This document shows positions 1-16,195 of a DNA stretch of 16,195 nucleotides, one piece after another (position 1 is the stretch's first letter; each line of letters begins with the position of its first letter). This stretch comes from Desulfomonilia bacterium (GTDB lineage Bacteria > Desulfobacterota > Desulfomonilia > UBA1062). A program made the position numbers and the translations under genes. The notes under the pieces are model-generated. The model saw only the letters and a list, made by a program, of their open reading frames with translations, did not search any database and was not told where the DNA came from. The DNA is taken from contig JBEKDT010000027.1 of the NCBI GenBank assembly GCA_050014195.1, positions 1 through 16,195 of the forward strand, written 5' to 3'.

Positions 1-123
1 ACTCGCTACCGGCCCGCTGGCTAGGCTTTGGCCGGGCAGGACTCTCACCTGCTGGGTTCCTTCCTCGAATTTCAAAGAGACAGACCACCTCCTTTCCTTT
101 CGAGCCAAGCTTACCTGGCGCAC
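1..123 (-). mobile_element. 5' end (domain I start) of a group II intron, continuing beyond the left edge of the window
   Basis: The reverse complement from 123 reads GTGCGCCAGGTAAGCTTGGCTCGAAAGG...GCAGGTGAGAGTCCTGCCCGGCCAAAGCCTAGCCAGCGGGCCGGTAGCGAGT. It has the canonical GUGYG 5' boundary and the GCAGG-TGAGAGT-CCTGC hairpin typical of bacterial group II intron domain I. The RT ORF and domains V/VI are not in the window. Confidence 0.72.
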
Positions 124-261
124 CCAAAATGTGTACTCTGCGCGTGAGATAAAAAAGTACATATATCGTCCGGATATCTAAGGGGATCATCAAATTATCT
201 TCTGACTAAATCTATATCCATTCTTATCCCATTGAGACAATTATTTACCACACTATCGTAG

Positions 262-290
262 TTGACTTGCTACCATCCCATTCTTATTAT
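262..290 (+). promoter_or_regulatory. sigma70-type promoter for katG
   Basis: TTGACT (262-267), a 17 nt spacer, then TATTAT (285-290) in an AT-rich intergenic region. The SD AAGGAG lies just upstream of the ATG at 432. Confidence 0.6.
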
Positions 291-392
291 CTTTTTCATA
301 ATGAATATATGGGTGCGGTAAATGATTACTGCAAGTAGGCGGACTAATCCATGTTAGCTATATGGGCAGCGAAACACTATTATTCATAGTAG

Positions 393-2600
<2,208 letters not shown>

Positions 2601-2649
2601 GATAAACGTCTTCGAGGGCTTCTGAATGGGCGGCCGAAAAAACGGTCAG

Positions 2650-2704
2650 CTCCAACAGGTTCCAGCGGACGGCGTATCGCCGCCGCTGAACCGGAATGTT
2701 ATAA
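2650..2704 (+). mobile_element. degenerate integron attC site
   Basis: CTCCAAC-AG-GTTCCAGCGGAC-GGCG TAT CGCC-GCCGCTGAAC-CGGAAT-GTTATAA. It shows AAC...GTT cores, an imperfect palindrome with the unpaired extra bases typical of attC L boxes, and a short central hairpin. The left spacer is shortened to 2 nt instead of about 5. Confidence 0.65.
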
Positions 2705-2708
2705 GCAG

Positions 2709-2805
2709 ATGATGACCATGAGGCGATTCTGAATTCCGAGTGGTTAAAGAAGTATCATCGTCTTTTATAGATTTAGCCAAGGACTTTATAAATGGCCACT
2801 TATAA
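2709..2805 (+). pseudogene. internally deleted gene-cassette remnant
   Basis: An ATG at 2709 directly follows the GTTATAAG core but stops at 2732. A second frame reads EFRVVKEVSSSFIDLAKDFINGHL* with its TAA (2803-2805) inside the CTTATAAC core, the usual position of a cassette gene stop codon. Confidence 0.4.
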
Positions 2806-2844
2806 CCAGCGGCTGCACAAGGACCGACCAGCTCCGCTACGCTC
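2799..2844 (+). mobile_element. truncated attC site (left half only)
   Basis: CTTATAAC-CAGCG-GCTGCACAAGGACCG fits the R''/L'' pattern, and CTTATAAC is the exact reverse complement of GTTATAAG at 2698-2705. No right arm follows. Confidence 0.5.
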
Positions 2845-3023
2845 AACATGAGTACATATATCATCAGAAGATGGAAAAATGTGGTCCTCAGGACAGAATG
2901 ATAGGTTACTATAAGATATGACGCATTAATAAAACTGAAGATTGTTTCTGTAAATGCCTTTTTTCTCTAATCGGAAAGATGAATCTTATATAAGAAGACT
3001 GGTCATTCTTTTATGGTATCGCA

Positions 3024-3848
3024 TCAAATCTTCAGATAATCCGACCACCTCTTCATAGTAAGCCTGCCCATGAGGTTCACGGCCCTACGGGGCAGGAGCT
3101 TCATGATACCCAGGTGGAGCGCCTTGTTCTGCCAGCCCGGCACATAGAACAGCCTGCCGTTCTTGAATGCCTTATAGCCCAGCTCAACCACCTCGTCCAC
3201 GGTCTTGAATGAGATAGTGAACGGGATGAAGTCCTCCGGCACCCCTGCATCATTGATCAGGTCGGTGCGGGTAAAGGGCGGATTCAGCGTGGACACCTTT
3301 ACCTTCGACCTCCAGGGCAGGTCTCCTGCAACCCCTTCAGTCAGCGATTGGGTGAAGGCCTTTGTCGCCGCGTACAGGGCGAGTGATGGCAGGGGCTGGA
3401 ATGCCGCCACCGATGACACGTTCAGGATGGCACCGCTGTCACGCTCGATCATGGAAGGCAGGAAGAGCCGCATGAGCTTGGCATACCCCAGGCAGTTGAG
3501 CAGAACCATTTTATCAAGACGGTCCTTATTCATCTCGTCGAACTTCCCGTAGGAGCAGATCCCTGCATTGTTCACCAGCACATCCAGGCCCTGTGCCCTG
3601 GTCATGACTTCATGATGCAGGGTCTCGGGCCCTTGGTGCGCTGTAAGGTCCACACAGGTGGTCCAGGTCCGGATACCGTGGTCCGCCTCCAGTTCGGATG
3701 CCCACTTTTCAAGCTGCTCTTCCCGGGATGGCAGGTCTGTGAGAAAGAGGTGCGCCCCGTCTCGCGCAAAGCACCTTGACAGCCCCTTGCCGATGCCCAT
3801 GGATGCACCGGTGATGAGTACCTTCTTTCCTCTGAAATCAAGCTTCAT
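3024..3848 (-). CDS. classical short-chain dehydrogenase/reductase (ketoacyl-reductase/DltE-like)
   Basis: 274 aa with TGASMGIG (TGxxxGxG), VNNAG, NVSS and YAATK (YxxxK). SD GGAGG upstream. Confidence 0.92.
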   Translation of the reverse strand: MKLDFRGKKVLITGASMGIGKGLSRCFARDGAHLFLTDLPSREEQLEKWASELEADHGIRTWTTCVDLTAHQGPETLHHEVMTRAQGLDVLVNNAGICSYGKFDEMNKDRLDKMVLLNCLGYAKLMRLFLPSMIERDSGAILNVSSVAAFQPLPSLALYAATKAFTQSLTEGVAGDLPWRSKVKVSTLNPPFTRTDLINDAGVPEDFIPFTISFKTVDEVVELGYKAFKNGRLFYVPGWQNKALHLGIMKLLPRRAVNLMGRLTMKRWSDYLKI

Positions 3849-3859
3849 GACAGACCTCC

Positions 3860-4849
3860 TTATCTACTTCGAAAGGCATTGGATATACGGGAAATCAGGG
3901 TGGCCTTGTTCTCCTTCACATATCTCGCAAAGTCCTCAAAGGCCTCACGCGTGGTGTACTTAAAGGTATAACCAAGTTCACGCTTGAGCTTGTCATTGCT
4001 CGCGATCCACGGGTAAACAAGCATCGTGAGCCCTGCACTCGGGAATTCGGTCATGAAATTAACCCGCCCGAACCACATGAGGTTGTTCATCACGTACAGG
4101 ATGGGGTAGGGCAGTTTGAGCTGATGGTTGCCCAGGATATGAATCATCTCATCGAAGCTCATGGTTCCGTCTGCTGCAAGATTGTATGCCCCTGTCTTTT
4201 TCTCCTTGAGCAGGAGATAGATGATCTCCACGAGATCGTTCTCATGGATGAACTGGAATGGAACCGTGTTGCTCGGCAGCATCACGATCTTTTTTTTGAG
4301 ATGGCGGGCAAGGGGGTTGTCGAATCCGGGCCCCACAACGAAGCACGGCCTGACCACGGCCAGGCTGACGTCGGGGTTCTCCTGCTGAAACCGCGAGCAG
4401 ACCTCTTCGAGCTCCCGCTTGTTCTTTGCATAGGTGAAATCCGCATTACCCCGCAAAGGACTCTCTTCAGTGAGCGGCATGTCATTGTCCGGATGGAACC
4501 CGTAGGCCGTGGTGGATGAGCACTGGAGGAGCTGTGGTATGCCTGCCTTCAGGCACGATGAAAGGAAGTTCTTCGTGCCGTTTATATTAATATCCTCCAT
4601 AAGCCCCTTGTCGTGGATGGGCGGCAGGATATAGGCGGCATGGATGGCCCAGTCGATATCCCTGTCCGTGAGAAGGGGATACATGTCCGCGCGTACGTCG
4701 TGACGGATGAACGTGAGCTTGGCTGAAGGGCGTCTGGGCTTGATAATGTCGATACCGATGATCTCGATAACATCTTCCTTGCTGCCCAGATGCTCCACGA
4801 GCTTCGAGCCGAAATAGCCCGAAACCCCGGTGATGAAGACACGCTTCAC
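3860..4849 (-). CDS. NAD-dependent epimerase/dehydratase family protein (extended SDR)
   Basis: 329 aa with a GTG start and SD AAGGAGG. Motifs TGVSGYFG, IHAA, NINGT, SSTTAYG, YAKNK (YxxxK), RPCFVVGP and QFIHEND. Confidence 0.9.
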   Translation of the reverse strand: MKRVFITGVSGYFGSKLVEHLGSKEDVIEIIGIDIIKPRRPSAKLTFIRHDVRADMYPLLTDRDIDWAIHAAYILPPIHDKGLMEDININGTKNFLSSCLKAGIPQLLQCSSTTAYGFHPDNDMPLTEESPLRGNADFTYAKNKRELEEVCSRFQQENPDVSLAVVRPCFVVGPGFDNPLARHLKKKIVMLPSNTVPFQFIHENDLVEIIYLLLKEKKTGAYNLAADGTMSFDEMIHILGNHQLKLPYPILYVMNNLMWFGRVNFMTEFPSAGLTMLVYPWIASNDKLKRELGYTFKYTTREAFEDFARYVKENKATLISRISNAFRSR

Positions 4850-4870
4850 CGGATGATCCTCCTTTCAAGA

Positions 4871-4903
4871 AAGGGGGCCCTCCCCATGCTGACAGGGCCC
4901 CTT
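4871..4903 (-). terminator. GC-rich intergenic hairpin (possible partial terminator or mRNA-stabilising stem)
   Basis: GGGGCCCT (4874-4881) pairs with AGGGCCCC (4894-4901). On the minus strand it is followed by CTTTCTT and then the SD of the next gene. Confidence 0.4.
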
Positions 4904-4916
4904 AAGGATGAGGATG

Positions 4917-6155
4917 TCAAACCTTCTCGAATATATGTATGGTCATGGAGGCTTCTTCCACGCCTAGATTTCCGCCGCCGTTCTCGGTGAGCCCGATCCG
5001 GGCCCCTTCCACCTGGCGCTTTCCTGCAAGGCCTCTAAGCTGCGTGACGACCTCATGGATCTGGGCAAGGCCCGATGCCCCTATGGGGTGGCCCCTGCAC
5101 TCCAGGCCGCCGCTCGTGTTGATGGGCAGCTTGCCGCCGAGCGTTGTGGCGCCGGACTCGGCAAAGATGCCGCCATCGCCGAGCCTGCAGAAACCCATGG
5201 CCTCGGTCTGGTGGAGCTCGCCGTATGAGGTGGCATCGTGGAGCTCGGCCAGGTGGATGTCCTTGGGACCAATGCCGGCCATGTCATATGCCTGCCTTGA
5301 GAGCCGCTCGCCGATGTCTGTCCCCTCGATTTCGCGGTGCATGCCCGAGCCCAGGACCGAGGCCCTGATGCGGACAGGCCTCTTCGCTTTCAGCCTCTTG
5401 AGATACGATTCCGAGCAGAGGATGGCCGCGGCGGCGCCATCTCCCACGGGCGCGCACATGGCCCGCGTCAGGGGATATGCCACCGGCTTGTCTGCCATGA
5501 CCTCTTCTACGCTCATGGTGGTTTGGTACTGGGCCAGGGGATTCAAAGATCCATGCAGGTGGTTCTTGGAACAGATCACGGCGAGCTGCTTCTGGGTGGA
5601 GCCGTATGTGGACATGTGCCAGCGGGCGCCCATGGCATAGGCGTCCATGAAAATGCTCCTGCCTTCACCGGGGGGTGACTGGCCGTCCGGCATTTTCACC
5701 GTGAACCGCTTGCTCAGTTCTTCGAACATCTTGAGGTGCGCCGCAAAGTTCTCCACGTCCATGCAGGTGGCGTATGCGCTGAGCGACAGGGCCTTGTTCT
5801 CGTGGGTGATCTTCTCGGAGCCGAGCGCGAGCACCACGTCGAACATGCCCGCCTTGATTGCCGTATAGCCAAGGTATAAGGCCGTTGATGCCCCGGCGCA
5901 GGCATTTTCGCAGTTCACGATGGGTATGCGGTCAATGCCCATGTCCCAGAGCATAACCTCGCCGCGGATGGAATGCTGGTTGGCGAACATGCCCCAGAAG
6001 GTGTTGGAAACATAGGCGGCCTGGATATCTCCCTTTTCGAGCCCGGCATCCTTGAGCACAAGATCCACGGCCTGGTGAGCCATGGTGCGCACGGTGGCAT
6101 CCGGGTATTTGTTGAACCTGATCATTCCGGTGCCGATTACGAATACATCGCTCAT
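4917..6155 (-). CDS. thiolase family protein, SCP2/nonspecific lipid-transfer type
   Basis: 412 aa with ENACAGAS (nucleophile Cys), DGAAAAIL, ELHDAT, INTSGGL and GHPIGASG. ENGGG stands in place of the C-terminal CxG motif. Confidence 0.93.
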   Translation of the reverse strand: MSDVFVIGTGMIRFNKYPDATVRTMAHQAVDLVLKDAGLEKGDIQAAYVSNTFWGMFANQHSIRGEVMLWDMGIDRIPIVNCENACAGASTALYLGYTAIKAGMFDVVLALGSEKITHENKALSLSAYATCMDVENFAAHLKMFEELSKRFTVKMPDGQSPPGEGRSIFMDAYAMGARWHMSTYGSTQKQLAVICSKNHLHGSLNPLAQYQTTMSVEEVMADKPVAYPLTRAMCAPVGDGAAAAILCSESYLKRLKAKRPVRIRASVLGSGMHREIEGTDIGERLSRQAYDMAGIGPKDIHLAELHDATSYGELHQTEAMGFCRLGDGGIFAESGATTLGGKLPINTSGGLECRGHPIGASGLAQIHEVVTQLRGLAGKRQVEGARIGLTENGGGNLGVEEASMTIHIFEKV

Positions 6156-6183
6156 ATCATGTTCTCCTTCGTGTCAGCCGTCA

Positions 6184-7416
6184 TTATTCCTCGCGCAAGA
6201 TCAGGCCTGCTGCAGCCAGGGCGAGGATGTCGTTGGAGCCGTCCTCGATCATGCCGGCCCTTGCGTCCCGGAAGATCTTCTCGATGGGGTACTCCTTGGA
6301 AAGGCCGTTCCCACCGAAGATCTGCATGGCATCGCTTGCCACCTCGAACGCCGACCTTGTTGCAAACACCTTGGCCGCGATGGAATACTCGGTCTTGGGT
6401 GGTGTTGTGGAGAGGTTGAAGATCAATGCCGCCCTTGAGTAGGCCCGGGCGAGCTCAACCTTAGAGAACATGTCGAAGAGCTTCTTCTGCACGGTCAGGT
6501 GGTCGCACAGCCTTTTTCCCCCCTGGATGCGCTCCTTGGAATAGTCAAGCGCCAGGTCATAGGCCGACTGGGCGACCCCCGTGAAGAAAGCACCCATGCC
6601 GGCATTCGCCGTGGCAAGCGTGATGTCTGTGAACATCTCATAGCTCTCATTGTCAATGATCATGTCTTCAACCGGGACTTCGGCATTGTCGAAAAAGATC
6701 TCACCCTGGGGCAGCTCCCGCTGGCCCATCTTGTTGAGCGGCTTGCCCCGGGACACACCTTTCTGCGTGAGGTCGACGAGACAGATGCCTCCGCCCGACA
6801 TGCCTAAAGATGGATCGATGTTGACGAACAGGGCGGCCTGAGTGGCAATAGTCCCATTGGACACCCAGGCCGCCTTCTGGCCGTTGAGAAGGTACTTGCC
6901 TCCCTTTTTGGTGGCCTTGACCTGCTGGGTGATCTTGGGGTTGTGGAAGTTGCCCGTGAAGGGCATGAGGATGTCCGAGCCATGATCAGGCTCGGTGATG
7001 GCCCAGCACGACATGATGCTCGCATCTTTGCAGTTCACGTACGGCAGGATGAACTTATCGATGATGTGGTCCTCTGCAATGAGTGATGCATAGAAGGCAG
7101 AGAAACAGGCAACGCCGATGGACACGGCAAATCCCACGCTGCCGTAGGCTATCTCCTCAAACACGATGTGGATGCCCAGCGGATCGACTCCAAGACCGCC
7201 GTATTCATCCGGGATGAGCACGGTGTGGTAGCCGTTCTCATACATCTTTTTCATACAGTCCCAGTAGACGGAGCCCTTGGCAATGACCTGCTCGGGCGTC
7301 ATGGTGTCGAGCTCGATTGCAGCAGGCCGCAGGACTTCCACAGCGAACTTGTGTGCATTTTCTTTGAGAGCAATGTGCTCGTCTGACATTTCAAGATTCA
7401 ACTCGGTATAGGGCAT
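6184..7416 (-). CDS. acyl-CoA dehydrogenase family flavoprotein (atypical catalytic motif)
   Basis: 410 aa with IPDEYGGLG, WAITEPDHGSD, LNGQKAWVSNG, KMGQR, YSKERIQGGK, QIFGGNG, EYPIEKIFRDAR and IEDGSN. Confidence 0.93.
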   Translation of the reverse strand: MPYTELNLEMSDEHIALKENAHKFAVEVLRPAAIELDTMTPEQVIAKGSVYWDCMKKMYENGYHTVLIPDEYGGLGVDPLGIHIVFEEIAYGSVGFAVSIGVACFSAFYASLIAEDHIIDKFILPYVNCKDASIMSCWAITEPDHGSDILMPFTGNFHNPKITQQVKATKKGGKYLLNGQKAAWVSNGTIATQAALFVNIDPSLGMSGGGICLVDLTQKGVSRGKPLNKMGQRELPQGEIFFDNAEVPVEDMIIDNESYEMFTDITLATANAGMGAFFTGVAQSAYDLALDYSKERIQGGKRLCDHLTVQKKLFDMFSKVELARAYSRAALIFNLSTTPPKTEYSIAAKVFATRSAFEVASDAMQIFGGNGLSKEYPIEKIFRDARAGMIEDGSNDILALAAAGLILREE

Positions 7417-7502
7417 GGAAACCTCCTTTTTTAGTTCCGTTCATGTGTCCCTGCACTCATGGTTCTCCTGTTCATCACTTTCAACACAGGATGGGCAAAC
7501 AC

Positions 7503-9116
7503 TCACTTGTAGTCGTCATATGAGTAAATCGCCCCGATCTTGTTCAAGAAATCCTCCCGCAGCTTCCTGTCCAGCGCCTTCTCAGAGATCGTCTTGGGGA
7601 TCTCGGATACAATCTGGAGATAGGATGGGATGAAGTTCGCCTCGAGGCTTTTCCTGCACGTTTCAAAGATGTCCTTCGGATCGATGGGCTTCCCTTCAAA
7701 GGAAGCGATGGCTGCCACCAGGTCGCTCTCGCCGGGGGCCCCGGATGCTGCGGGGACCCCATATACACACACCTCGCTCACACCGGGATGCTCACCGATG
7801 ATGCGCTCCACATGATCCGGCTGGATGAAATCTCCCGCCCTGCGGAGCTCGGTGCCCTTCCTGAAGTCGAAGTAATACCAGCCCTCGGCATCGCGGTGCA
7901 CGATATCGCCGCTCCTGAGCCAGCCTCCTAAAGTCTTCTCCTTGGAGGCCTCGGGAAGGCCCAGGTAATCCACCTTGGTGTCTCCCCGGACCATCCTGCT
8001 GATGAGCTCACCCATCTGACCTACCGGGACCTCGTTGTCGTTCTCGTCCACCACCTTGAATTCCATGATCCCGGGTATCGGTTTTCCGAATGAGCCGACA
8101 GGTCCTTTGCCGATGGGCTTGTAGGCGAAGCCGCCTTCCACGGCGGCATACCACTCGAGGATCTTGACATTGAACCGTTTCTCGAAGGCCTCCCAGATGG
8201 CAGGAGGGGTGCCGGCGCTGATGACCATCTCCACCGGGTTGTCGGCATCGTCGGGCTTTTCCTGTTCATTAAAGATACCCCCCATCATGCCGCCTAAGAG
8301 CGAGAAAGAGGTGCATCCGTATTTTTTGCAGATATCCCAGATCCTGCTCTTGGTGAACCGCGGGCTGAAGACGGCCTTTATCCCGGCATACAGCGCAGGG
8401 AACAACGTGACGGACTGTGCGTTGCCATGGGTGAGAGACAGCCCGTTGTAGAGCACGTCGGTCTGCTTGTATTTCCAGACGAGCTGGTTGAGGATGTTGT
8501 ACACCCCGGTGCGGTTGTTCCTGATCTTCACGCCCTTGGGGTCGCCCGTGGTGCCCGAGGTATAGATGATCTGCATGGGGTGGCGCACATCAAAGACCTT
8601 CTGGTCCACCCTTTCCCACGAGTCCTTCTCAAGGGTCTCGTTCATGGCATGGAACCTTCTGTCCACGGGTATGCCATGCTCTTCCCGGTAGGCCACGGAC
8701 ACGAGCTTGACCTCGTTCAGGTCATTGATGATCTCACCGAGTGGTTCCAGACACTCGTCCGAGATGATGGCGGCCTTGGCCCCGGAGTTCTTGAAGAAGA
8801 ATTTCAGCCGCTCCCCCCGGGACCTGGGATCGATGGGGATCATGATGGCCCCGATGGTGGTTCCTGCCAGGAGCGCGTACACGAACTCCGGTTCGTTCCG
8901 CATGAAGACCGCGAAGGTGTCGCCCTCCCCGATGCCGTTTTCCAGGAGCATCCGGGCTACCTTGTTCGAGTTGTCGTGGAGCTTGCCGTAGGTAAGGATA
9001 TCCTCCCCGTGCTCTCCCCGCTCGAAGATGTAGACCTGCCTGTCTGGCATGCTGTCCGCTTTCATTTCCACCAGGTGGGATGCAATCGCCTGGTTCAGAT
9101 GTGTTTTCGTTGACAT
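7503..9116 (-). CDS. ATP-dependent acyl-CoA ligase (AMP-binding, CaiC-like)
   Basis: 537 aa with the IYTSGTTGDPKG P-loop, WYAAVEG, GSFGKP, GWLRSGD, and C-terminal IPKTISEK (A10 Lys). Confidence 0.93.
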   Translation of the reverse strand: MSTKTHLNQAIASHLVEMKADSMPDRQVYIFERGEHGEDILTYGKLHDNSNKVARMLLENGIGEGDTFAVFMRNEPEFVYALLAGTTIGAIMIPIDPRSRGERLKFFFKNSGAKAAIISDECLEPLGEIINDLNEVKLVSVAYREEHGIPVDRRFHAMNETLEKDSWERVDQKVFDVRHPMQIIYTSGTTGDPKGVKIRNNRTGVYNILNQLVWKYKQTDVLYNGLSLTHGNAQSVTLFPALYAGIKAVFSPRFTKSRIWDICKKYGCTSFSLLGGMMGGIFNEQEKPDDADNPVEMVISAGTPPAIWEAFEKRFNVKILEWYAAVEGGFAYKPIGKGPVGSFGKPIPGIMEFKVVDENDNEVPVGQMGELISRMVRGDTKVDYLGLPEASKEKTLGGWLRSGDIVHRDAEGWYYFDFRKGTELRRAGDFIQPDHVERIIGEHPGVSEVCVYGVPAASGAPGESDLVAAIASFEGKPIDPKDIFETCRKSLEANFIPSYLQIVSEIPKTISEKALDRKLREDFLNKIGAIYSYDDYK

Positions 9117-9134
9117 GAATACCTCCTGTTCTCC

Positions 9135-9794
9135 TTACCAGTCCTCGTCCTCGACCGCACCGATGAATCCCCTGGTGAAGGTCGGGAATTCCTTTTTAAA
9201 GGTCTGGTCCCACACGTCCTGGGTCCAGAACTTGTGCCGGTCGAAGAACGGGTCGACCTTGGCTGCGCTCACGGCAATGCTCACGATTATGTCAACATCA
9301 GGCATGATCTCCAGGGCCTTGGCCGCAAAGGCCAGGGTGGAGAACACCCTGCAGTGCAGGCCCAGCCTCCATGCCATGGCTGCAGCTGCATCGGCCGCCA
9401 TGTGGATGTTGATGTTGCGGAAGATGCAGCTCGGGCCGTTACTGGTGAGCGACTCCACCATCTCGGCCTTGTTCAGCTCGGCGCAGGTGCGGTAGCCGCA
9501 TGCCCCGCAGTTGTAGTTGAAGAGCGACTGGCGCTTGTCACCGATGAGCAGCACGGCAGCAGGTTCCTTGATGAGGTCTGCGGCGAATCTGCCGTCACGG
9601 GCCGCCAGGGGGGACATGTCACCCAGCGAGAAGCAGTATTCGGCCAGCTGCTCGATCTCCTCATTGGTTATCTTGATGAGTTTCATGGTATTGCGCTTGC
9701 CGAACTTGAAGCTCGTTTGCGCCGCCAGGGCCATCATTTCCACGGCCCTGTCGAGGCCGGCCTGTAACATGTCATCCATTTCTCTGATAGCCAT
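9135..9794 (-). CDS. DUF2148-like ferredoxin-domain (Fe-S) protein, copy 2
   Basis: N-terminal helix MMALAAQTS, NCGACGYRTC plus GPSC four-Cys motif, then AADAAAAMAWRLGLHCR. Start placed at ATG 9794 (GGAGG 5 nt upstream) rather than GTG 9800. Confidence 0.75.
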   Translation of the reverse strand: MAIREMDDMLQAGLDRAVEMMALAAQTSFKFGKRNTMKLIKITNEEIEQLAEYCFSLGDMSPLAARDGRFAADLIKEPAAVLLIGDKRQSLFNYNCGACGYRTCAELNKAEMVESLTSNGPSCIFRNINIHMAADAAAAMAWRLGLHCRVFSTLAFAAKALEIMPDVDIIVSIAVSAAKVDPFFDRHKFWTQDVWDQTFKKEFPTFTRGFIGAVEDEDW

Positions 9795-9809
9795 ATCCAC
9801 CTCCCGTCC

Positions 9810-10487
9810 TTAACTGTAGATGGACCTGAACTGAGGCCAGAGCCTGCGGATGATCCGGTCGTTCATGGTCCGCTCGTTGATCTCACCGTACTTGACCGGG
9901 ATGTCCCTGAACGGGCTCTTCTCGGTCACCGATATTGCAACAGCCAGAGCGAATCCTGTCGCTTTGGGCAGGATCCCCATCCTCATGGCTGCCGCACCTG
10001 CAGACCAGTACACCCCGTAATCGATGCCTAAGTTGCGTGCCAGCGTCGCGATTCCGTCGACGGCGTATGAGATGTTCATGGCCCTGAAGGTGCACAGGGG
10101 GCCCGTGTAGGCCACACCAGGCTCCAAAGGGAGCTTGTCTTCCTTCCTGAGGTATTCGCAGGTGAGTTTGCCGCACAGGTTGCAGTTGATGTCGGACGGA
10201 TCGGTAAGGCTTCTGAGCGAGGTCACCACCAGCACCGCATCGGCGTCGCGGATCATGGCTGCATCGCGCATGAAGAATTCCCATGCCTTATTCTCAGAGC
10301 TCATCTCCTCGACTGCCTGGCAGAGGTCCTCGATGTCGCACTCATCGTCAATGATATGCACCGTGCACTCGCCGACACCACCTACCCTGGGAGAGGTGAC
10401 GGCTGATGCCAGGAGCATCCGCGCCGCGATCTGCGCCGCTTCCTTCCTGTCTTCTTCGAACTGTTTGAGGGTTCTCTCAACGCTCAT
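9810..10487 (-). CDS. DUF2148-like ferredoxin-domain (Fe-S) protein, copy 1
   Basis: 225 aa with LASAVTSPRVGG, FFMRDAAMIRDADAVLVV, NCNLCGKLTC plus GPLC four-Cys motif, YWSAGAAA and SVTEKSPF. SD AGGAGG upstream. Confidence 0.78.
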   Translation of the reverse strand: MSVERTLKQFEEDRKEAAQIAARMLLASAVTSPRVGGVGECTVHIIDDECDIEDLCQAVEEMSSENKAWEFFMRDAAMIRDADAVLVVTSLRSLTDPSDINCNLCGKLTCEYLRKEDKLPLEPGVAYTGPLCTFRAMNISYAVDGIATLARNLGIDYGVYWSAGAAAMRMGILPKATGFALAVAISVTEKSPFRDIPVKYGEINERTMNDRIIRRLWPQFRSIYS

Positions 10488-10517
10488 AGTGTATCCTCCT
10501 TATCATTTCATCTAGAA

Positions 10518-10916
10518 TCACCCGGCGATGGGGAGATTGTGCTTCCTGGCGATTGCCGGGTAATTCGCGTATGCCGGCTTTAAGAGGGGCAGGAGCTTGA
10601 GCACTTTGGGCATGGGCCCTTTGGCCTTGATGAGGCCCTTGGCGAGTGCTATTGGCAGGCTTACCTCCTTGAGCCAGAACTTGTGGCAGGTGTCGCCGCT
10701 CAAGGTCATCTCGATGGTGGGTTTGTAATCCGCAGGGCCACAGATGACCTTGCCGTCGTTGGTGAGCCAGATGAAGCCTTCCGGGTCGCTGATGGTGAAC
10801 TTGATGACGATGTTCGACTCGAGGTACTTGTCGTAGAGTCCCTTGTCCTGCATGAGGAGATTGAAGAGACTGCCCAGAACCTCGTACATCTTGTCGGTAC
10901 TTGCAAATACTGCCAT
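10518..10916 (-). CDS. SCP2 sterol/lipid-binding domain protein
   Basis: 132 aa from ATG 10916 (SD AAGGAGG), preferred over the 10973 start. The C-terminal half, MTLSGDTCHKFWLKEVSLPIALAKGLIKAKGPMPKVLKLLPLL, fits the SCP2 pattern. Confidence 0.8.
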   Translation of the reverse strand: MAVFASTDKMYEVLGSLFNLLMQDKGLYDKYLESNIVIKFTISDPEGFIWLTNDGKVICGPADYKPTIEMTLSGDTCHKFWLKEVSLPIALAKGLIKAKGPMPKVLKLLPLLKPAYANYPAIARKHNLPIAG

Positions 10917-11039
10917 AGAATCCTCCTTTTTGTCGTGTATGGTCGGGACAAAAATAACGTCCGTAAATCCCATGTATTCAAAAGTCGTGAGTACAAGCTC
11001 ACAAAATCAAATCAGATGCCATTTCCGCATTCCGCTTTA

Positions 11040-11693
11040 TTATTTCCGCAATTTTTTTGTCTTTGCTTCCCTCCTTTCCTGTTTTGCGGGGCCTTCATAT
11101 GAATCCAGGAGGCCTCTGACGGACCGCTTAAGACTCTCGACGGCCCACTGGGTGGAATGTTCGCCGCGTGCAAGATACCAGCGTGTGGCTATTCCCTGGT
11201 AGATGGCCGAGATGGTGCGTGCAGCACATTCGGCGTCCACATTAACATAGCGTCCCTGGGACTGGCCCAGGAGGATAGCCTTTTTCAGGAGCTTGACCCA
11301 GTTGTTGATCCAGTCGCTGAAGATCTCCCGGTATTCCTGGTCGTGGACGGCAATGGACATGAAATCATAGAGGATGGGGTATCCGGTATCAACGTCAGGG
11401 TCCTGCGCATTATAGAGCCATTCAAAGGAAAGGACCTGCTCCAGGGGGTCATCGAAGAAGGACATGGTTTCATCGCCGCGCACGAAGATGCGCTGAAAAA
11501 ATTCCTGGAACGCGGCCTTGAAGAGGTCGTTTTTGGATTTGTAGTAGTGGGCCAGACCGCCCTTGGAGAGGCCTGCGGTCTTGCAGATGTCATCCATGGT
11601 GACGTTTGCACACCCTCTTTCGGTAATGGTCTTAAGGGCGGCATCGATGATCTGGGCCTTACGAATCGCCTCAAGCTCCGCATTCGGCGGCAT
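11040..11693 (-). CDS. TetR/AcrR family transcriptional regulator
   Basis: N-terminal HTH RKAQIIDAALKTITERGCANVTMDDICKTAGLSKGGLAHYYKSKNDLF. Start placed at ATG 11693 with GGAGG at 11705-11701. Confidence 0.95.
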   Translation of the reverse strand: MPPNAELEAIRKAQIIDAALKTITERGCANVTMDDICKTAGLSKGGLAHYYKSKNDLFKAAFQEFFQRIFVRGDETMSFFDDPLEQVLSFEWLYNAQDPDVDTGYPILYDFMSIAVHDQEYREIFSDWINNWVKLLKKAILLGQSQGRYVNVDAECAARTISAIYQGIATRWYLARGEHSTQWAVESLKRSVRGLLDSYEGPAKQERREAKTKKLRK

Positions 11694-11852
11694 CAAAAAC
11701 CCTCCTTATAACTTATGGCTTCTTTTGGATAATAATGCCCGTATTCTTTGAGAGCGCACAAGGGTATCACCCATGCGGATGGCAATCGTGATGCGGGAAT
11801 CTTTGCTCGGCGGAATCGGCTATCTCAATAAACCGACCATGTGATATTTCTA

Positions 11853-11864
11853 CCGACCGGTCGG
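11853..11864. promoter_or_regulatory. palindromic operator, probably bound by the adjacent TetR
   Basis: Perfect 12 bp palindrome CCGACCGGTCGG just downstream of the predicted -10 box. An extra half-site ACCGACC lies at 11832-11838. Confidence 0.65.
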
Positions 11865-11875
11865 ATTATTTTTAT

Positions 11876-11903
11876 ATAATATTCGCCTCTCCCTCTTTGT
11901 CAA
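11876..11903 (-). promoter_or_regulatory. sigma70-type promoter of the tetR-led operon
   Basis: On the minus strand: TTGACA (11903-11898), a 16 nt spacer, then TATTAT (11881-11876). Confidence 0.65.
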
Positions 11904-11970
11904 GAGGGAAGCTTATAATAAGTTGTCAGACAATATATCAAGGCAAGTATTGATGGCTCATCACCGTAAT

Positions 11971-12206
11971 GCATCCTCGAGAGCACACAAAGGGCTATCC
12001 CACCACGAAGAGCACGAAGGACACGAAGAAAAGAATCCTATTGAAATCTCCGACTGAGGCAAGAGATCCACGAGTGTCCGTTCTGATTTTCTCTGATCAT
12101 CTTCGTGCTCTTCGTGGTGGTACTCCTATGTCTGCTCGAACCCCATGCTCCATTTTGGTTGCGGCTATGCTGCGCTAAGTCCTTCGTGTCCTTCGTGGTA
12201 AGAACA
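11971..12206 (+). repeat. palindromic CACGAAG-type repeat element, copy A (REP/MITE-like)
   Basis: Left arm CCACCACGAAGAGCACGAAGGACACGAAGA (12000-12029), right arm TCTTCGTGCTCTTCGTGGTGG (12100-12120) and a second right arm at 12180-12199. It aligns by eye with the reverse complement of 12641-12809. Confidence 0.8.
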
Positions 12207-12280
12207 ATGAGCCCTGCGGTATACACACAAGGATGTTGACACAGCATGGCCCCCCATGACATATTCCCCAAGAGTTATTC

Positions 12281-12508
12281 ATGGCGGGGTTGCTCATGGG
12301 GTTGAAGGGTTTCGGGGAAAATTCCAAGCTCATCTTTATCGGCATTGCCGTGGTCTTAGGCTTTATCTTCATCCTCCAGAACTTCGAGCAGACCTCCTTC
12401 CAGTTCCTCATCTGGACGCTCTTTACCGCACCCAAGTGGATCGTGGTCTCAGGCACCTTCCTCATCGGGATGGCCTTCGGGTTCTTGATGGGCAAGAAGA
12501 AGGCCTGA
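12281..12508 (+). CDS. small two-TM membrane protein, LapA/DUF1049-like
   Basis: Up to 75 aa; the start could be the second Met. Pattern: TM helix, FILQN, FLIWT, TM helix, basic tail KKKA, typical of LapA-domain proteins. Confidence 0.72.
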   Translation: MAGLLMGLKGFGENSKLIFIGIAVVLGFIFILQNFEQTSFQFLIWTLFTAPKWIVVSGTFLIGMAFGFLMGKKKA

Positions 12509-12640
12509 TCAAGACATAAAGCTCTTCTCATTGAAGCATACTTTTTAAGAGGCTCTCAACAGATCTGAAGATAATACCCCTTTATTTTGCATTGAATTGA
12601 GGGTCAGGTGTATGGCATGGTTCGCATGTTCTTTGGTACT

Positions 12641-12809
12641 GGTGTTCTTCACCACGAAGGACACGAAGAGCACGAAGAAGATCTAAGAAATTCAGAACAG
12701 ACAATCGTGGGTTCTTTGAACCGGTCAACTATTTCAAAAGGCTTCCTTTCTTCGTGTCCTTCGTGCTCTTCGTGGTTAGATATCCCTTTTGTGTGCTCCT
12801 CAATGATCC
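12641..12809 (-). repeat. palindromic CACGAAG-type repeat element, copy B (inverted relative to copy A)
   Basis: Arms CACCACGAAGGACACGAAGAGCACGAAGAA (12650-12679) and TTCTTCGTGTCCTTCGTGCTCTTCGTGGTT (12748-12777). The loop and outer flank are also homologous to copy A. Confidence 0.8.
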
Positions 12810-12877
12810 GAGTATGCTTTATGTGATGAACCGGACATATACATGTCTTGGGCGAAGTCCGCATGGATTGCCCCTCA

Positions 12878-13846
12878 TCATGTGTGCGCCTGACCGCCCA
12901 CCACATGGTTACGATACCAGCGTCTTCCCAGCATGCGCTGGTAATGCCAGGCAACCATGGGCAATAGACCCCGCGACCTTAACCAATATTGATCGGGTAT
13001 TTTCTCATGGCTGGGCACTTCGCCCAGAGAAACCTCGGCGCAGACAATGCCCTGGCCTTCATCATGACTGCGGCGTGCGATCACCCTGCCTGCTGCATCC
13101 ACGATGGCCGCATTCCCTTCAAAATATCCCCAATACGGCAGCAGGGGCAGGCCGAACATGGGGCACCTGATTTGTCCGCAGTGTGCGGCGTGGATGACCG
13201 GGGTGCCCACCAGCCGCGCGGTATCCTGCACGCACGCCAGGGCATTAAGGGCGTTCTGAGTCTCCCATGGGTCCTTTATCCAGCCCGGCAGATAGGTAGG
13301 GATGCTCCACCAGCACGAGCCTCCCATGATGACATCGACCCTGTTTCGAAGTCTTTGTGCAGTCATGGTGCGCATGTACTCCCAGCAGACCGCAGCCCCG
13401 ACACGGACACCATCATATTCCCCCAGAATACCGGTATCACCCGGATCGCCCCCCTCATAAAACGCATTCTCCCACATGGTCGGCAGATCCTTGTCATGCC
13501 GGCCGATCAGCGTGCCGTTCGCGAATGCCATATAGCGGTTTCTCACGGCACCGCCGGATATGCGGCACAGGAAGGAACCACCGATGACGATGTGGTGCCG
13601 TGCCGAGAAATCACGCAGAAAAGACGCAGCCGGACCGCTGTCGGTTTCTATGGCGTCTGCAATCCGCGGGTTCCAGGCAACCCCGGTGTTGAAGAATTCC
13701 GGGAGCGCGATCCATTGGGCGCCTTCCTGAACAGCCTCCCATGCAAGTCGCTCGCAGCCTGCAATATTCGCTGCCGAGTCGGCTATCTTCGTGGCAAGCT
13801 GAATTGCCGCCGCCCTCACTGGTTTGTTCATATTTTCATCATTCAT
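12878..13846 (-). CDS. carbon-nitrogen hydrolase (nitrilase/amidase superfamily)
   Basis: 322 aa with the catalytic triad motifs LPEFF (Glu), HDKDLP (Lys) and VCWE (Cys), plus an N-terminal AAAIQL strand. Confidence 0.92.
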   Translation of the reverse strand: MNDENMNKPVRAAAIQLATKIADSAANIAGCERLAWEAVQEGAQWIALPEFFNTGVAWNPRIADAIETDSGPAASFLRDFSARHHIVIGGSFLCRISGGAVRNRYMAFANGTLIGRHDKDLPTMWENAFYEGGDPGDTGILGEYDGVRVGAAVCWEYMRTMTAQRLRNRVDVIMGGSCWWSIPTYLPGWIKDPWETQNALNALACVQDTARLVGTPVIHAAHCGQIRCPMFGLPLLPYWGYFEGNAAIVDAAGRVIARRSHDEGQGIVCAEVSLGEVPSHEKIPDQYWLRSRGLLPMVAWHYQRMLGRRWYRNHVVGGQAHT

Positions 13847-13944
13847 GGTGATTTATGATGCCTCCTTATTTGTATTCTCTAAAACTGGAGCACTTATGAT
13901 AAAATACGTGCTATCATCAAAATATCAATACGGGGGTTTATTCT

Positions 13945-14340
13945 ATGGCATATCTTCTTTATCTGCATATTTTTTTCATGGCATCAGCAGTAGTGCTCGT
14001 CATATCCGCCTTTGCAATCGTCCGCAGAAAGAAAACCGGCTGGTTCGCCCGTCACCGCAGGATAGCGCTTCTGTCAGTATTGTCGGCACTTCTTGGGTTC
14101 ATTGCAGAGTTCATCTTTAAGACAGCCATGCATTACCCGCACTTGAAATCGCCGCATGCCTTTGCCGGTGTGATATCATTAATCATGCTCATCATTACCC
14201 CTGCCACGGGTTGGCTGATTGCCTCTGACCCCAAGAGATACCGGGTAATTCACAAGACCCTGGGAAAAATCACTTCTGTTGCCGTTCTTATAACCGCATC
14301 CATGGGAATAGCGCGGTTTATCCAACTTTCGAGGAGATAA
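13945..14340 (+). CDS. four-TM membrane protein with four His, cytochrome b561-like (DUF420/DUF4079-like)
   Basis: 131 aa with four hydrophobic helices, each with a His at its start: LYLH, WFARH, KSPHAFAG and RVIHKTLG. Confidence 0.7.
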   Translation: MAYLLYLHIFFMASAVVLVISAFAIVRRKKTGWFARHRRIALLSVLSALLGFIAEFIFKTAMHYPHLKSPHAFAGVISLIMLIITPATGWLIASDPKRYRVIHKTLGKITSVAVLITASMGIARFIQLSRR

Positions 14341-14471
14341 ACCTAACGGCTTGTAGCTTACCCGCCAGGCGAATTTATGAGGCTTCTATCTGTTCGAGGC
14401 TACCTGTGAGACGAAACCCTGCCTTAATTCGGCGCACGATTAGCCTGGTCGGGTGCAGCGACTGGTTGGGC
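14341..14471 (-). mobile_element. integron attC site (131 bp) of the HEPN gene cassette
   Basis: Minus strand reads GCCCAAC-CAGTC-GCTGCACCCGACCAGGCTAAT...ATTCGCCTGGCGGGTAAGC-TACAAGCC-GTTAGGT. It has RYYYAAC and GTT-core ends, pairing L boxes with extrahelical bases and a long central loop, and it overlaps the 3' end of the upstream ORF. Confidence 0.78.
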
Positions 14472-15977
14472 AGACTCTTCTGCTTCCTTCTGTTTCTGCA
14501 AGTGCTCTAGATTGAAATAAAGCATAAAGGTGTAATGCCATACACTGTCTATCATTGAAGCTACTGTAGAACGCAGGTCGATTGGCGAAAACGGTCGTGC
14601 AATGCCTCCTGATTTGAAGCTGTCTTGGATTACCTTCAAGAGCGATAACGCCTCATAATAATTGTCAGAATCTATCACAGCGAATTCCTGCATTCGCTTG
14701 GTTAGTTCTGAAGACTCATCAGGAGCAGAGGCGAGGTACTGCTGAATCATCAGTTTAGCAGTGCTTATCAATTGGTCAACCTTCAACCCTTTTTCTGCGA
14801 CAAACCGATAGGTCTCAATGTCGCGAACATCTTGACTCGTGGCTACTATTCGATCGGTAGGAGTTCCATCTCCTTTGCTAAGCGCCTGGCAAATCCGTTC
14901 TAATCTCTGCTGATTTGTCACCAGCAAGGAGTCCAACTTCAGTCGCTTGGCTATCTGTGCACCAGTTAGTATAGTCGCGACACAAACCTGGAATACCTGC
15001 CGCCCATAAGAGACCAATGAGCGATATTCCAACTCAGGCCTCCCGGATGGCTTTTTGGGGTCATCGGTGGCGACGAACATTAGGCTGGCAGACCGCCCTT
15101 TATGAACAATCTGGGAGCGAGCTCCGTAGAACTGCGATAGCCAACTGTCGAGGCGGGGGACATCTCCTACAAGGAGACCGACTGCCTCTTTGAAGCGTGC
15201 GGTAACTTTCTCCCCTGCCTCAAGGTCTAGCAGGCTTTCGAAGGCAATTGCAAGATTGACTAAAGCCACACTTTCATCAATATCGATTTCTATGCTTCTA
15301 TTATACCAAGTAAGCGCAGTGAGCATCCGTTCGCTCAAATTGTCTCTCTCTTCTCTCGCTGTGAAATACTCAAGTACTGGTCGGTAGAGTCGAGACTGAG
15401 AGAGACGATAGTTGAGGTCGGCGCTTAAGTCCTGGGAGATGTTGAGCCACAGACTCACCGTTGGAGGGAAGATGCGACTACCACGAGTTACCCAAAAATA
15501 CAATTCGTTGTTGAGTCTGCCTTCATAGCCTTCTATTTCGCTTCTGGAGTCGAAATCTAGATTTTGACCTTCTGCTAGGGTCTCTACATTGTGATCGTTT
15601 ACGAGTAGGTATTTGGAAACCTGCTTAGGTTGAAGCAGGTAGAGGCTCGCGTGTTCGTACCGCAAGAAGGGGTCTCCAGATGTGGGATGAGGCGAAGAAT
15701 AGATGAAGCGTGCAAGTGCCTGGAACTCAAGGAGCTGCTGTGTGAACTCGGAAGCGCTAAAACCCTCACTTGAAGCGTGAAACGCATATGATATCTTCTG
15801 TATTCGGTGATGATCGCGCAGGAAGAACATAGTGCAAAGCGTTTTGAGATGTCGAACCACATCAGGCGGTAGGTCAGTAAAGTCGTCACTGTTTTTAATC
15901 GCGAGACTCTGATAGAGCACCGGCCCCGAGGTCTTGAGGTAAGGGAAAAATGCAAATGTGTATTCGCTTTCTGCCAT
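14424..15977 (-). CDS. HEPN-domain protein (ApeA-like HEPN), candidate defence or toxin RNase
   Basis: 517 aa containing ALTWYNRS...LVNLAIAFESLL...QFYGARSQIVHKG, with the RxxxxH motif at 15119-15102. SD AGGAG at 15990-15986. Visibly less GC-rich than the operon, and the stop codon lies inside an attC. Confidence 0.75.
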   Translation of the reverse strand: MAESEYTFAFFPYLKTSGPVLYQSLAIKNSDDFTDLPPDVVRHLKTLCTMFFLRDHHRIQKISYAFHASSEGFSASEFTQQLLEFQALARFIYSSPHPTSGDPFLRYEHASLYLLQPKQVSKYLLVNDHNVETLAEGQNLDFDSRSEIEGYEGRLNNELYFWVTRGSRIFPPTVSLWLNISQDLSADLNYRLSQSRLYRPVLEYFTAREERDNLSERMLTALTWYNRSIEIDIDESVALVNLAIAFESLLDLEAGEKVTARFKEAVGLLVGDVPRLDSWLSQFYGARSQIVHKGRSASLMFVATDDPKKPSGRPELEYRSLVSYGRQVFQVCVATILTGAQIAKRLKLDSLLVTNQQRLERICQALSKGDGTPTDRIVATSQDVRDIETYRFVAEKGLKVDQLISTAKLMIQQYLASAPDESSELTKRMQEFAVIDSDNYYEALSLLKVIQDSFKSGGIARPFSPIDLRSTVASMIDSVWHYTFMLYFNLEHLQKQKEAEESAQPVAAPDQANRAPN

Positions 15978-15999
15978 TTAGCTCACTCCTGTTGAACCC

Positions 16000-16027
16000 C
16001 ACTGGCAAGACTTCGTCTTTGCCAGTG
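16000..16027. repeat. REP-like hairpin in the leader of the HEPN gene
   Basis: CACTGGCAAGAC-TTC-GTCTTTGCCAGTG forms a 12 bp stem with one bulged T. Confidence 0.6.
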
Positions 16028-16195
16028 CCACCCAATACATACCTTCTATCATTTCTCACCCAGGCCACCCGTGATGTTCCCCAAGAAAAGTGGACCACTA
16101 TTTGTATTACCTTGCCAGTGCTTCATATTCAACAGGGGAACAGTAATTGATCCCCGAGTGTATCCGTTTCCTGTTGTAAAAATGGGTGATATATC

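Follow-up and report, generated by a model that had tools for sequence, protein, structure and literature searches.

How does a gene cluster built like a beta-oxidation operon accomplish its cycle if it encodes no enoyl-CoA hydratase, and what do the two DUF2148 genes that it carries contribute? This question is raised by nine genes in a 16,195-nt stretch of a Desulfomonilia bacterium genome (assembly GCA_050014195.1, contig JBEKDT010000027.1, positions 1 to 16,195 of the forward strand; hereafter the window). We denote the two DUF2148 proteins DufA and DufB, and the pair DufAB. The explanation that we favour, and to which we give about an even chance as a whole, is that the locus forms a self-contained catabolic cassette under TetR repression, which spreads among strict anaerobes by horizontal transfer. 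It would break down a hydrophobic acid by beta-oxidation-type chemistry, with DufAB as its redox component and with the hydration step borrowed from crotonases of the host.

The nine genes lie on the minus strand, all co-oriented, and span positions 3024-11696. The first encodes a TetR-family repressor (217-218 aa; 11040..11696; Pfam TetR_N 53.4 bits, TetR_C_6 34.3 bits). It is followed by genes for an SCP2-fold lipid-binding protein (132 aa; 10518..10916), for DufA, a long-form DUF2148 protein (9810..10487; PF09918, 70.6 bits against a cut-off of 25), and for its paralogue DufB (9135..9800; 67.4 bits, same cut-off). Next come an AMP-forming acyl-CoA ligase (537 aa; 7503..9116; AMP-binding 205.6 bits), an acyl-CoA dehydrogenase (ACAD; 410 aa; 6184..7416; three ACAD domains above the Pfam cut-offs) and an SCP2-type (SCPx/BbsB-like) thiolase (412 aa; 4917..6155; Thiolase_N and Thiolase_C_1 above the Pfam cut-offs). 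Two short-chain dehydrogenases/reductases (SDRs) complete the row: an extended SDR of the epimerase/3-beta-hydroxysteroid dehydrogenase type (329 aa; 3860..4849; Epimerase 87.3 bits, 3Beta_HSD 45 bits) and a classical SDR (274 aa; 3024..3848; adh_short 153.1 bits), a candidate 3-hydroxyacyl-CoA dehydrogenase. From tetR to the classical SDR gene, the intergenic gaps measure 123, 30, 9, 18, 86, 28, 67 and 11 nt.

Every family of the nine proteins scored above its Pfam cut-off except SCP2 (PF02036; 17.0 bits against 21.3), and no NCBIfam equivalog exceeded its cut-off for any of them. The ligase, dehydrogenase and thiolase of a beta-oxidation cycle are all present above the Pfam cut-offs. The Pfam scan of the window found no crotonase, MaoC or electron-transfer flavoprotein (ETF), and no 3-hydroxyacyl-CoA dehydrogenase of the PF02737 type. 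An initial annotation made from the sequence had listed these nine co-oriented genes, their short gaps, their families and the missing hydratase and ETF genes; the open reading frame (ORF) list, Pfam and the fold comparisons agree with it. Its SCP2 call, sub-threshold at sequence level, is carried by structure: the AlphaFold model (predicted local distance difference test score, pLDDT, 94.8) gave 34 Foldseek matches at E<=0.001, all of them SCP2 proteins or SCP2-like domains and headed by 4jgx, 8af2 and 1ikt (Yarrowia and human SCP2 and the SCP2-like domain of MFE-2). The idea that this small protein is a hidden hot-dog hydratase is ruled out by the SCP2 fold.

To sample related loci, one genome per species was scanned with the DufA alignment; 165 stretches encoded a relative, and 80 loci of the cassette type were kept. 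Their ORFs were searched with the nine window proteins, and presence was counted only in loci with enough sequence ("room"). The core SCP2-DufA-DufB-ligase-ACAD-thiolase was complete, collinear and co-oriented in 57 of the 61 loci with room. In two of the four exceptions (L010 and L065) ligase and ACAD are present as fragments, and in the other two (L041 and L047) the thiolase was not found at the thresholds used. The periphery is looser: tetR occurs in 51 of 70 loci with room and, among the 51 with room for the SDR end, 44 have a classical SDR, 31 an extended SDR and 46 either of the two. The classical SDR in related loci is often non-orthologous. DufA is the most conserved protein of the operon, with 72-96% identity to the window over four phyla (median 76%, minimum 72%), ahead of the thiolase (median 72%), ligase (71%), SCP2 protein and DufB (69% each), ACAD (68%), TetR (54%), extended SDR (53%) and classical SDR (42%).

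That the nine genes merely form a fortuitous neighbourhood is hardly credible. The variation of tetR and of the SDR end between loci would fit such a view, but order and orientation of the core recur in 57 of 61 loci over four phyla, the gaps are only 9-123 nt, and the loci share no other neighbour: no family among the 562 unassigned flanking ORFs is found in more than 14 of 80 loci, the count reached by sensor kinases. The initial annotation had proposed as a test that the gene order might not be conserved elsewhere; instead, it recurs in 80 loci of other genomes, which supports that annotation's view of the genes as a unit.

The related loci belong to Thermodesulfobacteriota, Spirochaetota, Chloroflexota and Bacillota; carriers include Desulfomonilia, Syntrophaceae/Smithella, Desulfobacterales (Desulfosarcina widdelii PP31 among them), Desulfarculus, Spirochaetota, Dehalococcoidia and Clostridia. 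The nearest relatives of the window, with 95-96% DufA identity, are metagenome bins labelled Desulfomonilia or Bacteriovoracaceae. We calculated a tree from DufA, DufB and ACAD with 49 rows (the window and the first 48 of 52 loci with near-normal protein lengths). In this tree all six Chloroflexota group together in a single clade that lies within the Spirochaetota, Thermodesulfobacteriota appear in several places, and branches are short. Within the window's own phylum, 13 of the 401 genomes sampled and 9 of the 254 genera have a cassette-type DufA. Of two further genomes from the window's genus one has it, whereas the family's four other genera lack it. The nested placement, the short branches and the patchy distribution together are the pattern of a horizontally mobile accessory cassette.

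Hidden Markov models (HMMs) built from the own genome's 21 enoyl-CoA hydratase/crotonase (ECH), 3 MaoC and 8 ETF segments were run on all ORFs of the 80 cassette loci. They yielded no ECH match. MaoC matched twice (L026 and L063), both times on the opposite strand and kilobases off, and ETF once (L070); these matches are strays only. The same HMMs do find ECH, MaoC and ETF in other loci and hence work, and a Pfam scan of 48 neighbouring ORFs revealed no hydratase. Homologous clusters that routinely carry a hydratase, an outcome that the initial annotation had considered damaging to its proposal, were thus not found. The hosts themselves are well supplied: elsewhere in its genome the window's host has 24 ECH, 3 MaoC and 8 ETF matches, and in each of five carriers outside the phylum (two Dehalococcoidia, two Spirochaetota and one Clostridia) the ECH matches number 4-24 and the ETF matches 2-10. 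Because the hosts hold ECH and ETF elsewhere, absence from the cassette need not mean replacement. The initial annotation was right about the absence, and its suggestion that DufAB may supply the missing step is weakened by the own genome and by all five of the five other hosts.

DufA and DufB are paralogues with 29% identity. The AlphaFold model of DufA, obtained from a 99-sequence alignment (pLDDT 91.6), gave 117 Foldseek matches at E<=0.001, headed by 3gfa, BluB and iodotyrosine deiodinase, members of the nitroreductase superfamily. An independent structure search against representatives placed 3e39 first (Z 13.9, root-mean-square deviation 2.7 over 132 residues); each of the 47 chains that reached Z>=8 is a member of the same superfamily. 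They include the fatty-acid enone reductase CLA-ER (4qlx, Z 11.9), the C-terminal domain of FbiB (FbiB-C; 4xom, 12.6) and the cyclodipeptide oxidase AlbAB (8uc3, 11.3), which reduce or form a C=C bond adjoining a carbonyl. As modelled, the DUF2148 fold is that of a nitroreductase and not of a ferredoxin. The tandem Fe-S DUF2148 pair of the initial annotation stands as regards the family (PF09918 twice) and the four-cysteine sites; what is corrected is the picture of the fold, a nitroreductase fold into which the four-cysteine site is inserted.

At the sequence level, Pfam reported PF00881 for neither protein. When the DUF2148 alignment of 99 sequences was compared by hhalign with 14 nitroreductases from the own genome, the probability was 70.5% over 36 columns only. 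Only the N-terminal motif aligns (AArTAPK with AaRxAPS), and the arginine that binds the phosphate of flavin mononucleotide (FMN) in nitroreductases is replaced by V30 in DufA and by Gln in DufB. A sequence search of DufA against solved structures found nothing significant (best E 0.26), its ESM Atlas matches were DUF2148 clusters only, and a weak search for longer proteins containing DufA found none. The DUF2148 family is small, with 437 representatives at E<=0.001 among 1.84 billion proteins, and the DufA clade of the cassette makes up a single 50%-identity cluster. One metagenomic representative, P0128 (747 aa), consists of a DUF2148 domain of the A' type (the type of the variant pairs described below) fused to a GltD/NfnB-like NAD(P)H oxidoreductase (Fer4_20 and Pyr_redox_2). 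A corrinoid in place of the flavin was considered by analogy to reductive dehalogenases, whose cobalamin domain is nitroreductase-like, and was dropped; no such chain occurs among the 50 matches listed.

Both proteins have a site of four cysteines, C102-x2-C105-x4-C110...C132 in DufA and C98-x2-C101-x4-C106...C125 in DufB, all of which are invariant in 49 of 49 orthologues of each protein. In the DufA model the site sits in an insertion, a loop that separates a strand of the nitroreductase fold from a helix. DufA has 83 invariant columns in its 49 orthologues; in the wider set of 99 DUF2148 sequences, C105 and C132 are invariant and C102 and C110 are kept in at least 90%. PF04060 (FeS) matched DufB with 19.2 bits, below its cut-off of 23. 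These patterns point to one [4Fe-4S] site in each of DufA and DufB, and the two proteins probably assemble as a heterodimer. With all four cysteines invariant the cluster would be fully ligated, which favours electron transfer over Lewis-acid hydration. Judging from its nitroreductase-fold neighbours, the invariant cysteines and the P0128 fusion, DufAB looks redox-active.

DUF2148 pairs also occur outside the cassette. The own genome contains a second pair on another contig (L005, C16:13500-33499, at 7420-18127) in the order SCP2'-ACAD'-DufA'-DufB'-thiolase'-SDR', followed downstream by a nitroreductase-Fer4 fusion, a ligase, a Fer4 protein and a nitroreductase. The cluster is preceded by the gene for a sigma-54 activator of 1043 aa that contains a GAF domain, and a gene of the HGD-D (2-hydroxyacyl-CoA dehydratase) type lies upstream. 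At E<=1e-5, 74 of the phylum's 401 genomes have relatives of DufA', a count that includes weak matches to other DUF2148 types, with up to six copies per genome. We compared 21 variant loci, namely L005 and 20 further stretches. A' and B' are adjacent in 20 of them; L135 has only a long A'-type frame. An ACAD of the cassette subfamily adjoins the pair in seven (L005, L116, L117, L123, L124, L129 and L131), an SCP2-type thiolase is nearby in about 12, six times with a DUF35 partner, and a PaaK-type ligase is present in six and ETF in two; ECH or MaoC lies within about 9 kb in four. Other neighbours are VAO-type/CCG, CrtI-like and OYE-type proteins and aldehyde:ferredoxin oxidoreductases (AOR). 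In variant CoA-ester clusters the pair recurrently adjoins a flavin or tungsten dehydrogenase (ACAD, VAO-type, CrtI-like, OYE or AOR). The ACADs next to Duf pairs form one subfamily with at least 49% mutual identity. Among the other 25 ACAD homologues of the own genome, two are close to the cassette ACAD (49% and 47%) and 23 have at most 32% identity; the closest, at 49%, is the one adjoining the second Duf pair. The DUF2148 pair thus turns up repeatedly as a module in CoA-ester clusters of anaerobes, frequently though not invariably beside its own ACAD subfamily.

Among L124 (12116-13609), L118, L120, L132 and L133 we noted a FabH/HMGCS-like protein fused to DUF35, SCP2-type thiolases accompanied by DUF35 partners, and PaaK-type ligases. 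The same group of loci also has an HpaB/AbfD-like protein and a double flavoprotein of the VAO type together with a CCG protein. The third subfamily member in the own genome (C14:4797-6080, 47% identity to the cassette ACAD) follows an ORF of 1098 aa, and its surroundings contain no DUF2148 gene. A third cluster of the own genome (C16:33143-40331, minus strand) has the order ACAD-ECH-thiolase-nitroreductase-ligase-SDR; here a canonical nitroreductase of the PF00881 type occupies the place of the Duf pair, and an ECH-like gene is present.

In the pathway that we propose, the FATP2-like ligase would activate a bulky hydrophobic acid, for which very-long-chain, methyl-branched/isoprenoid or steroid-type acids are candidates, and the SCP2-fold protein would hold the acid or its CoA ester. 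The ACAD would desaturate the CoA ester at the alpha,beta position, one of the many crotonases of the host would add water, an SDR would oxidise the 3-hydroxy intermediate, and the SCP2-type thiolase would cleave the product. DufAB would serve as the dedicated electron conduit of the ACAD or, equally, as a C=C oxidoreductase acting on the CoA ester, and not as a hydratase. What the analysis shows are the genes and their conservation, the folds, the cysteine sites, the operator sequence, and a hydratase and ETF that the cassette lacks but its hosts encode elsewhere; the substrate class, the heterodimer, the content of clusters and cofactors, the role of DufAB and the direction of flux are what we infer.

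Several observations weigh against this proposal. Low-potential [4Fe-4S] clusters are poor acceptors for the acyl-CoA/enoyl-CoA couple, and the replaced arginine of the N-terminal motif makes flavin binding doubtful. Every tested host has ETF, so that the ACAD has no need of a private acceptor. The P0128 fusion is known from a single database representative and could be an artefact of gene calling. An ACAD lies within 5-7 kb of the pair in only about 10 of the 21 variant loci, and the compact L118 operon (PaaK-type ligase-DUF35-thiolase-A'-B') is without any dehydrogenase. Moreover, a hydratase gene is a usual part of specialised beta-oxidation clusters such as bbs, ali/bad and those for steroid side chains, which makes its absence from a cassette that crosses phyla odd if hydration is borrowed.

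In a different explanation DufAB, alone or together with the ACAD, supplies the water addition, and the cassette is a complete, hydratase-independent beta-oxidation unit. Self-sufficiency would explain why the unit travels intact between phyla, and it would suit the absence of ECH from the 80 loci, with only two distant MaoC genes on the opposite strand, the lack of a hydratase among the 48 neighbouring ORFs, and the rarity of ECH or MaoC near variant pairs (4 of 21 loci). In one case, the cluster at C16:33-40 kb with a PF00881 nitroreductase and without a Duf pair, an ECH-like gene is indeed present. We nevertheless consider hydration by DufAB distinctly unlikely: Fe-S hydro-lyases of the aconitase type leave one iron free, but all four cysteine ligands are invariant in both paralogues; no protein among the nitroreductase-fold matches listed carries a hydratase description; and every tested host has 4-24 crotonase-family matches to draw on. 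Its most far-reaching form, also a long shot, holds that DufAB is the founding member of a new class of heterodimeric nitroreductase-fold [4Fe-4S] enzymes for CoA thioesters and, with its own ACAD subfamily, converts acyl-CoA to the 3-hydroxy or 3-oxo level without crotonase, MaoC or ETF. If true, the six genes would form a beta-oxidation module for strict anaerobes that is both transferable and fully self-sufficient.

The direction of electron flow could also be the reverse of the one proposed above. ACAD and DufAB would then act as an enoyl-CoA reductase fed by low-potential electrons, in the manner of CarC-CarDE or CaiA-FixABCX, for the reduction of an unsaturated acid or for elongation. 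Low-potential four-cysteine clusters are suited to electron donation, the A'-type DUF2148 domain of P0128 is fused to an NAD(P)H-oxidising GltD-like module, CarC is among the solved relatives of the ACAD (6fah_C, 132.9 bits), and the NCBIfam models of CaiC and CaiA gave matches, if only sub-threshold ones. Against these stand the combination of a TetR repressor, an acid-activating ligase and an SCP2 protein, which is typical of the catabolism of external acids, the degradative SCP2 type of the thiolase, and the fact that a dehydratase would be missing just as the hydratase is. We regard a reductive role as very unlikely.

The substrate of the cassette can be narrowed by the relatives of its enzymes. 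The best solved relative of the ligase is FATP2, a very-long-chain acyl-CoA synthetase (149 bits), and the best solved matches of the thiolase are 6hsj, a type-1 SCP2-thiolase (208.6 bits), and BbsB (7pxp, 202.4 bits). The thiolase retains the nucleophilic Cys (NACAGAS) and the GHP His; its HDCF motif, the place of the acid/base Cys, reads HDAT (HDAF in BbsB). The ACAD is MCAD-like (medium-chain acyl-CoA dehydrogenase) and has IEDG in place of the IYEG of MCAD, with the Asp aligned with Glu376; among 49 orthologues, neither I390 nor E391 varies, and at least 90% retain D392. The extended SDR gave only weak matches to GalE among solved structures. Taken together, the FATP2-like ligase, the SCP2 fold and the SCP2-type thiolase indicate a bulky hydrophobic acid as the probable substrate.

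Such a substrate need not be degraded in repeated cycles. In a one-pass route, a compound resembling a steroid, bile acid or oxylipin would be held by its CoA thioester as a handle. The SDRs and DufAB would rebuild one of its rings or functional groups, and a single shortening of the side chain would follow, much as the bai or CLA-HY/DH/ER pathways proceed by modifying rather than repeatedly shortening their substrates. The two different SDRs, one of the 3-beta-HSD/epimerase type, the SCP2-fold small protein and the likeness of the ligase to FATP2, relatives of which activate bile-acid precursors, would all find a use here. CLA-ER, a structural match to DufA, is a nitroreductase-fold enone reductase that works with an SDR on fatty acids in the CLA-HY/DH/ER saturation pathway. 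However, the SDRs are the least conserved part of the cassette (extended SDR in 31 of 51 loci, classical SDR at a median identity of 42%), the steroid matches of the extended SDR are weak (3Beta_HSD 45 bits, with GalE as the best solved relative), and ACAD and thiolase are fixed in the core. We therefore consider a one-pass route possible but unlikely.

Returning to the beta-oxidation-type cassette, its parts are reminiscent of several known systems. It resembles the peroxisomal branched-chain/bile-acid set in the relationships of ligase (FATP2) and thiolase (type-1 SCP2-thiolase), in having an SDR dehydrogenase, and in its free-standing SCP2-fold protein, which matches the SCP2-like domain of MFE-2 (1ikt). 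The peroxisomal set uses the oxidases ACOX2/3 and the MaoC-type hydratase-2 of MFE-2, whereas the cassette has an ACAD and no MaoC domain; it further differs in that all parts are separate proteins, in its occurrence in strict anaerobes, and in the DufAB pair and TetR repressor. With the bbs operon of anaerobic toluene degradation (BbsEF, BbsG, BbsH, BbsCD and BbsAB) it has in common the BbsB-like thiolase with the HDA(F/T) motif and the combination of ACAD and SDR within a single operon of anaerobes, but it has neither a DUF35 partner (BbsA) nor a crotonase (BbsH), and a ligase stands in place of the CoA-transferase; against the NCBIfam model of BbsB the thiolase scored 228.5 bits, with a cut-off of 750.

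As in Bcd-EtfAB, CarC-CarDE and CaiA-FixABCX, the ACAD gene is flanked by genes for putative private redox proteins. DufAB, a putative partner of the ACAD, is unrelated to ETF and has a nitroreductase fold with Cys4 sites. CLA-ER, FbiB-C and AlbAB share the fold of DufA over about 134-150 residues (Z 11.3-12.6), and AlbAB, like DufAB, consists of two different chains. DufA and DufB are set apart from these enzymes by the inserted Cys-x2-Cys-x4-Cys...Cys site, by the lack of a PF00881 match and by the replaced FMN-phosphate arginine. The short DUF2148/COG4739 proteins (about 175-190 aa) also match PF09918 and have the four cysteines, whereas the cassette proteins are 221-225 aa long, end in conserved C-terminal tails and are found without exception as A/B pairs; their identity to the short forms is 17-32%.

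Searches of the literature under DUF2148, COG4739 and PF09918 returned nothing at the level of listings and abstracts, and broader searches at the same level returned nothing on this gene set; proteome tables of sulfate reducers may mention the proteins by locus tag. The initial annotation, which had not recognised a described pathway, is in line with this. The operon type is known; the variant with the Fe-S pair is undescribed, and its most conserved component belongs to a family for which we found no published function. In sediments, peat, aquifers and digesters, carbon turnover is limited by how fatty and lipid-like acids are broken down; the metagenome bins that hold the related loci have record names pointing to habitats of this kind. 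Once found, the reaction of DufAB would fill a step in the anaerobic degradation of lipid or hydrocarbon acids and give a function to a nitroreductase-fold type of Fe-S protein. Two cultured carriers, Desulfosarcina widdelii PP31 (L057) and Desulfarculus baarsii DSM 2075 (P0098), make the cassette testable.

Upstream of tetR, a sigma-70-like promoter (TTGACA, 16-nt spacer, TATTAT; 11876..11903, minus strand) matches at 11 of 12 positions and is the best of five promoter-like sites in 2550-12200. This number equals chance (5.0 +/- 2.1 in shuffles), so that the argument for a promoter is based on position and not on count. The palindrome CCGACCGGTCGG (11853..11864, strand not applicable) begins 11 nt past the -10 hexamer and overlaps the expected transcription start; it is the likely TetR operator. 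In the window, and likewise in 15 of the 51 related loci with a called tetR, the sequence CCGACNNGTCGG precedes tetR; only five further sites lie elsewhere in the 1.22 Mb of those loci, and the half-site AAACCGAC occurs in 32 of the 51 regions upstream of tetR. The predicted function of CCGACNNGTCGG is likely that of a TetR operator in the repressor's own promoter. Of the strong promoter/operator in the initial annotation, the 11/12 match and the palindrome recurring across loci hold, while the number of promoter-like sites does not exceed chance.

The start of tetR is more likely ATG 11693, with AAGGAGG ahead of it, than 11696. The ATG of the SCP2 gene at 10916 is preceded by AAAGGAGGA, while the listed ORF start at 10973 has no Shine-Dalgarno sequence; Shine-Dalgarno-like sequences thus precede the likely starts of tetR, of the SCP2 gene and of dufA. 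Between tetR and the SCP2 gene lies a weak hairpin with a T-rich tail (10985..11004, minus strand; seven pairs, three of them G-C), which may act as a partial terminator separating an autoregulated tetR from the structural genes.

The cassette is flanked in the window by a gene for the catalase-peroxidase KatG (432-2600, plus strand; 1359 bits to NF011635) on one side. Further flanking genes encode a CN_hydrolase, a cytochrome b561-like membrane protein and a 517-aa ORF without a Pfam or NCBIfam match; the flanking ORFs other than katG lie at 12878-13846 (minus strand), 13945-14340 (plus strand) and 14424-15977 (minus strand). None of these four genes is conserved beside the cassette in other loci. 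A dispersed intergenic repeat made of tandem 9-bp units (CACGAAGNN) forms inverted arrays on either side of a small ORF (12175-12531), with arrays at window positions 12004-12030, 12101-12117, 12182-12198, 12653-12678 and 12750-12775. The repeat doublet CACGAAG-NN-CACGAAG occurs 109 times in the 4.2-Mb genome, and the dispersed repeat looks like a REP-type element.

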